In this document: piece by piece, positions 9,623 through 10,445 of the stretch
How the letters are laid out: every line of letters begins with the position of its first letter
Numbering within the stretch: position 1 is the first letter of the stretch
Sequence record: MK373778.1
Source of the DNA: Escherichia phage vB_EcoM_WFbE185
DNA: 64,000 nt
Reading direction: 5' to 3' (one strand)
Notes under the pieces: generated by a model
The model's database searches: none
What the model saw: the letters and a program-made list of their open reading frames with translations, nothing else
What the model was told of the DNA's origin: nothing
Position numbers and translations under genes: made by a program

Positions 9623-9654
9623 TATATACCTTGTCGGGGTCCCACCTGCTAAGG

Positions 9655-9700
9655 CAAGTGTTTGTACGAAACGCCGGGATTCGAACCCGGTTATTAAGCA
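9655..9700 (-). other. tRNA-like 3' element (T-arm plus acceptor-like stem), possible small stable RNA or tRNA remnant
   Basis: minus-strand ccgggTTCGAATcccgg followed by cgtttcg that can pair with cggaacg about 60 nt upstream; no full cloverleaf. Confidence 0.25.
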
Positions 9701-9925
9701 GTTGACGCTACTCAATATTTTTAAAAGGCCATATCTCGTCCATATCCGAACGTTCCGTCAAAAACGCTACTCGGCTTACGGCAAAGATATTTCCTCGAAT
9801 CGATAATTCTGTGCGCCGTTTCTGCTGTGATGTGAGGGGATATTAACAAATCGTAAAGATTTGTTAAGACCAGTCCTTACTCAGGGAACATCAGTCCGAC
9901 GTCTTGCCGGTAGCGACCCGGCTTC

Positions 9926-10270
9926 TTATTTTGGCATATCATCAATTTGCTCTCGACGCCGACGCCATAGATTAATCGCTTCATAGGCACATTCTGCGTT
10001 TGGTATATGACGGCAATAATATAATGATTCGCGTTTCTGGAACCGATGTTGCAACGGGATTTCGTTTAAAAGGTCTTTACGGTCAAAGTATTCAAAACTA
10101 GTTAACCCGGAACGGTTTTTAAGAAACTTCCAATGTCCGAATTCATTTTTAAAATAAACATAATCAGCATGTTGATATAATGAATTAATTAACCTATCGG
10201 AAATAACTGTTTCACGTTCGTTAAAATAAAACGTTAAATCATGAACTACCAGATACACATTGCCTTTCAT
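9926..10270 (-). CDS. hypothetical protein immediately downstream of tRNA-Arg
   Basis: ORF track 9926..10318 extension overlaps the tRNA; ATG at 10270 with GAGGA SD. Confidence 0.55.
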   Translation of the reverse strand: MKGNVYLVVHDLTFYFNERETVISDRLINSLYQHADYVYFKNEFGHWKFLKNRSGLTSFEYFDRKDLLNEIPLQHRFQKRESLYYCRHIPNAECAYEAINLWRRRREQIDDMPK

Positions 10271-10288
10271 ATTTTCCTCACTTGAAGT

Positions 10289-10365
10289 TGGTCGAGACAG
10301 AAGGATTCTAACCTTCAACCTACGGATTAGAAGTCCGTTGCTCTATACAATTGAGCTATGCCTCG
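10289..10365 (-). tRNA. tRNA-Arg (anticodon UCU), CCA encoded
   Basis: hand-folded cloverleaf: acceptor CGAGGCA/TGTCTCG, D stem GCTC/GAGC, anticodon stem ACGGA/TCCGT with loop CTTCTAA, T stem GAAGG/CCTTC; T-loop is TTAGAAT rather than the canonical TTCGAAT and the D-loop lacks GG. Confidence 0.75.
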
Positions 10366-10371
10366 AATATA

Positions 10372-10445
10372 TGACCCAGACCAGATTCGAACTGGTAACC
10401 TTTCCCTTATGAGGGGACTGCTGCTAACCATTGAGCTACAGGGCC
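10372..10445 (-). tRNA. tRNA with anticodon CAU (Met or Ile2 type)
   Basis: T-arm ACCAG-TTCGAAT-CTGGT, acceptor GGCCCTG/CTGGGTC with one mismatch, anticodon loop CTCATAA; D and anticodon stems imperfect. Confidence 0.5.

Follow-up and report, generated by a model that had tools for sequence, protein, structure and literature searches.

Organization of the locus

We analyzed a stretch of 64,000 nucleotides (nt) from Escherichia phage vB_EcoM_WFbE185 (MK373778.1), hereafter the window, and focus on a cluster of genes for tRNAs and small stable RNAs within it. Two tRNA genes, an open reading frame (ORF), and orthologs of the phage T4 genes rnaD and rnaC all lie on the minus strand (Table 1). Over 1.5 kb the locus is 96% identical to Mosigvirus (RB69-like) genomes, e.g., those of E. 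coli O157 typing phage 3, APCEc01, and JK45, and its gene order is that of RB69: tRNA.4, tRNA.3, tRNA.2, ORF151c, tRNA(CAU), tRNA-Arg, ORF150c, an unannotated gap of about 430 nt, and ORF149c. We are highly confident that the locus is the RB69/Mosigvirus version of the phage T4 tRNA operon, forming one transcription unit on the minus strand (9595-10532), and we consider the identity of its individual parts close to certain. The arrangement is already known, and rnaC and rnaD are orthologous to known T4 genes. What is new, though modest, is a covariation-backed fold for rnaC, a pair of complementary invariant loops within this RNA, and compensated tertiary pairs in the tRNA-Arg.

ARAGORN finds exactly two tRNAs in the window, both on the minus strand and separated by six nt (10366-10371), and neither a tmRNA nor a third tRNA. 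Both also clear the gathering score of the Rfam tRNA model RF00005 (29 bits), reaching 54.0 and 71.1 bits, so that the two closely spaced minus-strand tRNAs recognized in a first-pass annotation of the window are placed by two programs. That annotation had called the cluster reduced, and rightly so: RB69 carries two tRNAs and T4 eight (PMC1524935, Table 1), and at the homologous place the T4 record lists all eight together with rnaD and rnaC, as had been stated.

Table 1. Coordinates of the tRNA operon and its elements in the window, with the observations on which each assignment rests.
Feature	Position	Strand	Basis
Putative middle promoter: MotA box TGCTTTA (10526-10532), 12-nt spacer, -10 TATTAT (10508-10513)	10508..10532	-	Consensus match, conserved
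tRNA-Ile(CAU)	10372..10445	-	Rfam tRNA 54.0 bits, ARAGORN; CCA not encoded
tRNA-Arg(UCU), AGA decoder	10289..10365 (Rfam 10292-10365 or 10289-10365)	-	Rfam 71.1 bits, ARAGORN; CCA encoded
114-aa ORF, RB69ORF150c, homolog of T2L trna.2 ORF	9926..10270	-	phrog_3355, E 2e-50, category unknown
rnaD ortholog (species 2 RNA)	9810..9929	-	Aligned to T4 and Aplg8 rnaD features
A/U-rich linker GAAUUA between rnaD and rnaC	9804..9809	-	T4 counterpart AAAUUA
rnaC ortholog (species 1 RNA, 139 nt)	9665..9803	-	3/139 positions differ from T4 rnaC
rnaC long arm, 70 nt, D-arm position with large insertion	9726..9795	-	Helices 3-5: 17/19 pairs compensatory
rnaC anticodon-position hairpin, 10-bp stem and loop CGUCAA	9692..9717	-	8/10 stem pairs compensatory
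rnaC T-arm CCGGG-UUCGAAU-CCCGG	9674..9690	-	Sequence and consensus fold
rnaC acceptor-like stem, 3' strand CGUUUCG	9667..9673	-	Pairs with 5' end CGAUUCG (9796-9802), two U.U mismatches
Trailer hairpin CACUUGC-CUUA-GCAGGUG	9643..9660	-	Fold; conserved in T4, IME08, VR20, including rnaC-less phages
Intrinsic terminator, stem with internal UU/UU, GAAA loop, U6	9595..9623	-	-16 kcal/mol, z -3.1

Identity of rnaC and rnaD

The 336 non-coding nt at 9590-9925 have matches in 806 phage records and are 88.8% identical to the T4 region annotated as rnaD plus rnaC; the stretch is annotated as rnaD (species 2 RNA) and rnaC (species 1 RNA) in T4, Aplg8, and RB9. Our rnaC covariance model (R1) scores the window sequence at 160.5 bits and T4 rnaC at 161.8 bits. 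The first-pass annotation had noticed a tRNA-like 3' fragment here and offered two explanations, namely that a tRNA had decayed or that the fragment belonged to a small stable RNA whose 3' end is tRNA-like. The latter is borne out: as judged from sequence, the fragment is the acceptor/T-arm module at the 3' end of an unannotated rnaC ortholog, which follows rnaD and precedes the terminator within the tRNA operon. The rnaD ortholog between the ORF and rnaC had been overlooked; its 5' end overlaps the stop codon of the ORF (9926-9928). The A/U-rich linker that separates the two RNAs is a likely endonucleolytic processing site, and RNase E reportedly cleaves the dimeric precursor of species 2 and species 1 RNA in T4. 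The species 1 RNA of T4 was sequenced in the 1970s.

In T4, RNAC and RNAD originate from the tRNA region, are visible on northern blots, and are of unknown function (PMC3014915, PMC9697503, PMC12685909). RNAC was seen as a discrete RNA by northern blotting in a study that terms both RNAs "small regulatory RNAs" (PMC9697503), and one of the two probe-template oligonucleotides used there matches the first 58 nt of the window rnaC exactly. Records of RB69-type phages, including NC_004928, leave the approximately 430 nt that contain rnaD and rnaC unannotated. In phage PG7 the 3' two thirds of rnaC are called a 95-nt "tRNA-Met" (L004:1551-1645), in H46 (MK373779) the call is "tRNA-OTHER", and in several records small hypothetical ORFs are drawn over rnaC and rnaD; these tRNA and small-ORF calls are likely artefacts. 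Rfam 15 contains neither RNA; searches of it, at gathering thresholds and at E values up to 10, returned only chance-level alignments on rnaC and rnaD, to isrK and to tRNA-Sec.

A probable tRNA-like four-way junction in rnaC

We compared 26 distinct rnaC homologs from Tequatro-, Mosig-, Karam-, Gelderland-, Kanagawa-, Winkler-, Moon-, and Marfavirus and from unclassified relatives, about ten genera altogether. Homologs were sought in IMG/VR with three pattern scans: the first gave 9 loci, all rnaC homologs by regular expression; the second gave 105 loci, 96 of them new, of which the covariance model accepted 11 as real and left the rest as chance matches; and the third gave three new loci, all rejected by nhmmer. 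Among the matches listed from the metagenome scan, nhmmer accepts one extra rnaC copy, which is Marfavirus-like; these matches brought in no additional lineage that could bear on the loop-loop pairing described below.

RNAalifold predicts a four-way junction as the consensus structure of rnaC from the alignments of 15 and of 26 sequences. In the former, 97% of the cells are paired and 27 of the 42 pairs have changed on both sides; none of 500 shuffled alignments reached any of these measures, and in slid controls about 40% of cells were paired. In our judgment rnaC very probably folds into an expanded tRNA-like four-way junction. The perfect T-arm already noted at its 3' end is present, and the middle pair of the T stem covaries (UA, GC, AU). 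The acceptor-like stem of 7 bp, which joins the 5' and 3' ends of rnaC, abuts the T-arm without a base between them, as in tRNA, and its pair 4-139 switches from A-U to G-C in 10 of 15 and 18 of 26 sequences (alignments A3 and A5). The arm in the D position starts from a stem of 3 bp (AGG/CCU), whose loop holds a hairpin of about 60 nt and ends in GG (9729-9730). Eight A-rich nt link this long arm to the 10-bp hairpin in the anticodon position, and a single base stands in place of the variable loop. In each of the 26 sequences the long arm spans 70-71 nt and the second hairpin exactly 26, despite arm identities as low as 35-47%. The earlier statement that there is no full cloverleaf is therefore half true: no tRNA model matches rnaC at threshold in ARAGORN or Rfam, but the entire RNA forms a tRNA-like junction.

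The apical loop of the long arm, UUGACG (9756-9761), is the exact complement of the hairpin loop CGUCAA (9702-9707), both being six nt long. Across the 26 sequences all 156 cells of this loop-loop pairing are paired. The only change in the loops is a paired replacement of A-U by G-C, which is found in four sequences of the Marfavirus lineage (alignment A5); a fifth sequence, the metagenome copy, has the same loops. We also considered whether the TTGACG of the long-arm loop is conserved at the DNA level, as a sigma-70 -35 box, and rejected this, as inspection of the sequence shows no suitable -10 element at the right spacing and as a paired change like that in Marfavirus points to pairing in the RNA. 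A contact between the UUGACG and CGUCAA loops is something we propose only tentatively.

Three sequences deviate in the T-loop, which reads UGCAUCC or UGCAUGC in Winklervirus LC53 (L019:426-568), Kanagawavirus IME523 (L020:500-642), and an IMG/VR contig (L107:4200-4342). In the same three, the internal-loop motif UGG has become UCG, i.e., the first G of the GG is a C. This coupling, which a contact resembling G18-psi55 would predict, suggests an interaction like that between D-loop and T-loop; the pair resembling G19-C56 stays in place. Loop complementarity, fixed lengths, and T-loop coupling speak for a compact fold like that of tRNA with a contact between the loops, but fall short of proof.

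The predicted structure of rnaD comprises a 5' hairpin (CCGG-GUCGCUA-CCGG, with a closing pair that is A-U or G-C across the alignment) and a long irregular hairpin, the base of which is invariant and the tip of which has been replaced in some lineages. An alignment of 14 sequences is near-invariant over the 52 nt at the 5' end and the 30 nt at the 3' end, and compensatory changes are seen at 10 of the 34 predicted pairs.

rnaD and rnaC are modules independent of each other. Without rnaD, rnaC occurs inside the tRNA arrays of Karam-, Gelderland-, and Winklervirus and of phages Ursula and COW86c, mostly between tRNA-Trp and tRNA-Gly. The position among tRNA genes agrees with an origin of rnaC from a tRNA gene and with its processing by the tRNA machinery. 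The reverse is found in Dhakavirus IME08 (L006:1493-1700), where rnaD is joined straight to the trailer hairpin with exactly rnaC missing, and in Gaprivervirus VR20 (L007:1493-2235), where rnaD is followed by ORF VR20_145 in the place of rnaC.

The two tRNAs and the ORF

The first-pass annotation had drawn attention to an unusual T-loop and a D-loop without GG in the tRNA-Arg, and both are read in the sequence: the T-loop is UUAGAAU and the D-loop AAUUGUAUA. Its minimum-free-energy fold is nevertheless a perfect cloverleaf. The tRNA-Arg of T4 is another gene; the lineage of the window gene is found in T2-type, Dhaka-, Gapriver-, Gelderland-, Karam-, and Marfavirus phages. In an alignment of these genes (A11), the window, VR20, and S16 combine a D-loop containing UUGUAUA with the T-loop UUAGAAU, whereas seven related genes combine GG with UUCGAAU or UUCGAUC. 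Positions 19 and 56 are G and C in these seven relatives and U and A in the other three, without mixed cases, and the same three also have A15-U48 where the seven retain G15-C48, again without mixed cases. The pairs 19-56 and 15-48 are among the D-loop/T-loop tertiary pairs that build the L shape of tRNA. Read against this established fold, the odd loops of the tRNA-Arg are compensated tertiary pairs (G19-C56 to U19-A56 and G15-C48 to A15-U48) and not signs of decay. The gene shows a clean natural double swap of tertiary pairs.

The tRNA with anticodon CAU is labeled tRNA-Met by ARAGORN and in most records. It is identical to the tRNA-Ile of T4 at 73 of 74 bases, the sole difference lying in the T-loop. 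Imperfect D and anticodon stems had been pointed out before, and the Rfam alignment bears this out with C13.C22 and G27.A43, to which it adds U6.U67. The acceptor stem begins with GGCCC (C4-G69, C5-G68) in the window tRNA, in T4 tRNA-Ile, and in E. coli ileX, whereas metT has GGCTA (alignment A12, for which ileX and metT were taken from E. coli by coordinate). The acceptor pairs C4-G69 and C5-G68 are determinants for TilS. A blastn search of the CAU tRNA against E. coli genomes gave no match at E 0.01. In T4-like phages, among them RB69, the CAU tRNAs show signatures of tRNA-Ile and presumably read AUA by virtue of a lysidine (PMC1524935). Because of the match to T4 tRNA-Ile, the ileX-type acceptor stem, and this published assignment, we read the gene as a tRNA-Ile that would decode AUA after lysidine modification, and not as a tRNA-Met. 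In the ORFs of the window, AUA makes up 12.8 and AGA 7.5 of every 1000 codons, about three times the frequencies of E. coli.

The ORF does directly follow the tRNA-Arg, as the first-pass annotation had it, but at 18 nt from the CCA rather than the 19 nt given there, and it is preceded by a GAGG Shine-Dalgarno sequence (10276-10279). It equals RB69ORF150c, and an unannotated copy lies at the same place in Aplg8. The seven homologs found are all from T4-like coliphages. The ORF matched no significant Pfam family, and a fold search gave no assignment. A primer (#24) for the trna.2 ORF of T2L encodes MKGNVYLVVH, the same N-terminus as that of the window ORF (PMC2330249). Homing by SegB replaces approximately 1250 bp, including the trna.2 ORF (PMC2330249), which is why this ORF is missing from T4.

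Promoter, terminator, and flanking genes

The MotA-like site shares bases with the stop codon of the preceding ORF (10525-11040), and its sequence is conserved in T4, Aplg8, and IME08 immediately ahead of their tRNA clusters. For the MotA box we used the consensus of T4 middle promoters. In T4, a middle promoter lies just upstream of the tRNA cluster, and there is a single primary transcript, about 1.75 kb long, whose end lies behind species I RNA (PMC2330249). At the other end of the window operon, the terminator is annotated as such in related records; a simple terminator scan missed the stem owing to its internal mismatch. Between the trailer hairpin and the terminator (about 9624-9635, minus strand) the window is without 9-13 nt, UUGCCGCAAGGCU, a small hairpin with a GCAA loop that is present at that spot in T4, in Aplg8, and in Mosigvirus SA79RD.

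Three minus-strand ORFs flank the operon, at 9086-9550, 11951-12214, and 12283-12570, with the N-termini MKSYAEFLTE, MKTYKEFIAE, and MKTYKEFISP, respectively. These starts resemble the capsid-targeting sequence of T4 internal proteins. The ORF at 12283-12570 is annotated IpI in a related record, and the one at 9086-9550, annotated merely as hypothetical, has a weak match to an "internal virion protein" PHROG.

A model for the operon and for rnaC

A precursor of about 0.9 kb, from approximately 10500 to 9595, would be transcribed from the MotA-type middle promoter. If T4 is a guide, host tRNA-processing enzymes would cut this precursor and free the tRNA-Ile, to which CCA would be added later, and the tRNA-Arg, whose CCA is encoded; the two tRNAs would supply AUA and AGA decoders for the codons of the phage. 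The ORF would be translated from the precursor or from a processed piece. A cut at the A/U linker would part rnaD from rnaC, and both would be trimmed back as far as their stems. The tRNA-like module of rnaC may provide processing signals and stability, and its specialized arms, locked or joined through UUGACG and CGUCAA, would be the functional part, probably engaging a tRNA-binding factor.

We extend this, as a more speculative proposal that we would not bet on, to a self-masked tRNA mimic, in which the hairpin inserted into the D-loop pairs UUGACG to CGUCAA and the GG docks on the T-loop; alternatively, the loops may join molecules into dimers or rings. If either were true, this would be the first structural handle on the T4 species 1 RNA, and would suggest that it acts as a decoy or scaffold for a host or phage factor that binds tRNA. 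Any specific function of rnaC in trans we consider distinctly doubtful.

Several observations weigh against this model. The AGG/CCU stem of 3 bp is invariant and hence gains no support from covariation. In the T4 annotation rnaC has one extra base ahead of the predicted acceptor stem, and RNase P is for that reason not clearly the enzyme that processes the 5' end; RNase E is said to do so. The stability and the ends of rnaC and rnaD in the window phage are carried over from T4 by analogy. The loop-loop contact would rest on one evolutionary event, in the Marfavirus lineage, and the loops could pair between molecules or could each bind something else. The absence of rnaC from IME08, and the ORF in its place in VR20, show that it is dispensable in some relatives. 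As to the tRNAs, codon bias explains tRNA content poorly outside T4 (PMC1524935).

Alternatives to this model

The alternative that fares best is that rnaD and rnaC have no function in trans at all, but are structured parts of the 3' end of the transcript that serve protection, processing, or termination and accumulate through their stability. The location of both at the 3' end of the operon, just ahead of the terminator, would suit this explanation, as would the phages that lack or have replaced rnaC and the 50 years in which no function has come to light (PMC3014915, PMC9697503). However, Karam-, Gelderland-, and Winklervirus have rnaC by itself amid tRNA arrays and a long way from any terminator, and a hairpin that only protects would not need invariant loops, arms of fixed length, and an elbow signature like that of tRNA. 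Furthermore, in experimental evolution of a T4-like phage on a semi-permissive host, a single nucleotide polymorphism in rnaD was repeatedly selected (PMC12685909). We consider a role in cis alone unlikely, although it keeps some weight.

A second alternative is that rnaC is a base-pairing regulatory RNA whose hexaloops target transcripts of host or phage and not each other. The loops are invariant and exposed, which agrees with this idea, as does the label given to RNAC and RNAD in the northern blot study. However, seeds of six nt are too short for target prediction, no target is known, and the loops are exact complements that have changed in concert in Marfavirus, an outcome not expected of two independent targets. 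This explanation is improbable.

The extent of the RNA could also have been misjudged. The first-pass annotation had placed the partner of the acceptor-like stem about 60 nt upstream, and eight consecutive base pairs do exist, in the window as in T4, between ACGGAACG at 9751-9758, 61 nt upstream of the T-arm, and CGUUUCGU at 9666-9673. With ACGGAACG as the acceptor strand, the unit would be a tRNA-like RNA of 94 nt; the tRNA-Sec alignment from Rfam uses this internal stem, and it is the 95-nt form that ARAGORN calls in PG7. However, pair 49-139 of the internal stem is unpaired in 9 of 15 sequences and two more pairs are broken in three to four, without a single compensatory change, whereas the same bases form helix 5, in which five of six pairs covary, and the stem with the 5' end, approximately 130 nt upstream, covaries from A-U to G-C. 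The conserved partner is thus the 5' end, and a 94-nt unit is very improbable. The last alternative, that the T-arm region is a neutral pseudogene left by one of the six tRNAs lost relative to T4, has next to no probability: the tRNA-Sec model aligns weakly to 9666-9758 (16 bits with a threshold of 47, E 4.6) and pipelines at times call tRNAs here in H46 and PG7, but RF00005 has no match to this segment at E values up to 10 and ARAGORN has none, the orthologous T4 rnaC coexists with all eight T4 tRNAs and is detected as a discrete RNA (PMC9697503), and double changes have kept 27 of 42 pairs over about ten genera while the loops stayed invariant and the lengths remained fixed within 1 nt at 35-47% identity, so that the decayed tRNA offered in the first-pass annotation is contradicted.

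The tRNA-like four-way junction remains our preferred reading of rnaC. As a genome feature the locus is ordinary and will not surprise a specialist. Nevertheless, the coordinates together with the covariance model would mend the missing or miscalled annotation of rnaC and rnaD in RB69-type records. In addition, the comparative fold makes the old question of the species 1 RNA somewhat more testable, through mutants that specifically affect the tRNA-like junction, the fixed arm lengths, or the complementary invariant loops.

Comparison with known systems

The tRNA regions described for RB69 and T2L (PMC1524935, PMC2330249) have, like the window, the two tRNAs Ile(CAU) and Arg(UCU) and RB69ORF150c after the tRNA-Arg, and are without segB. 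There is no essential difference between RB69 and the window, whereas T2L keeps extra tRNAs and a second ORF (trna.1). With T4 the window shares the order of rnaD, A/U linker of 6 nt, rnaC, trailer hairpin, and terminator at the 3' end of the tRNA operon. However, in the window the trna.2-like ORF parts the tRNA-Arg from rnaD, which in T4 begins one base after the tRNA-Arg; the T4 rnaD is 118 nt long, and the middle of the window rnaD has diverged from it.

Compared to a canonical tRNA (RF00005), rnaC is alike in its 7-bp acceptor-like stem adjoining a T stem of 5 bp with the loop UUCGAAU, in its four-way junction, where arms occupy the D and anticodon positions, and in having a GG, which apparently co-varies with the T-loop. 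It differs in its length of 139 nt, its 70-nt arm in the D position, two U.U mismatches in the acceptor, and the lack of an encoded CCA; its "anticodon" hairpin has a stem of 10 bp and a loop of 6 nt without U33, and its variable loop is one base. The tRNA mimics of bacteria, i.e., the tRNA-like domain of tmRNA and the Y-RNA-like YrlA, resemble rnaC in using an acceptor/T-arm module as a tRNA-like handle; rnaC, unlike them, has no tag ORF and no Ro-binding helix. The only YrlA alignment in our searches (17.8 bits with a threshold of 69) falls on the true tRNAs and not on rnaC, and the same is true of plastid matches.

The packaging RNA (pRNA) of phage phi29 serves as a working analogy only. 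There is no similarity in sequence or model between the two RNAs, and no Rfam pRNA match to rnaC at E values up to 10; to our knowledge, packaging of the T4 type needs no RNA. Nevertheless, both are structured RNAs encoded by phages, roughly 120-170 nt in length, and each has a pair of mutually complementary loops. In phi29 pRNA these loops join hand in hand into oligomers, whereas in rnaC what we see are the complementary loops themselves, which may pair within one molecule or between molecules.

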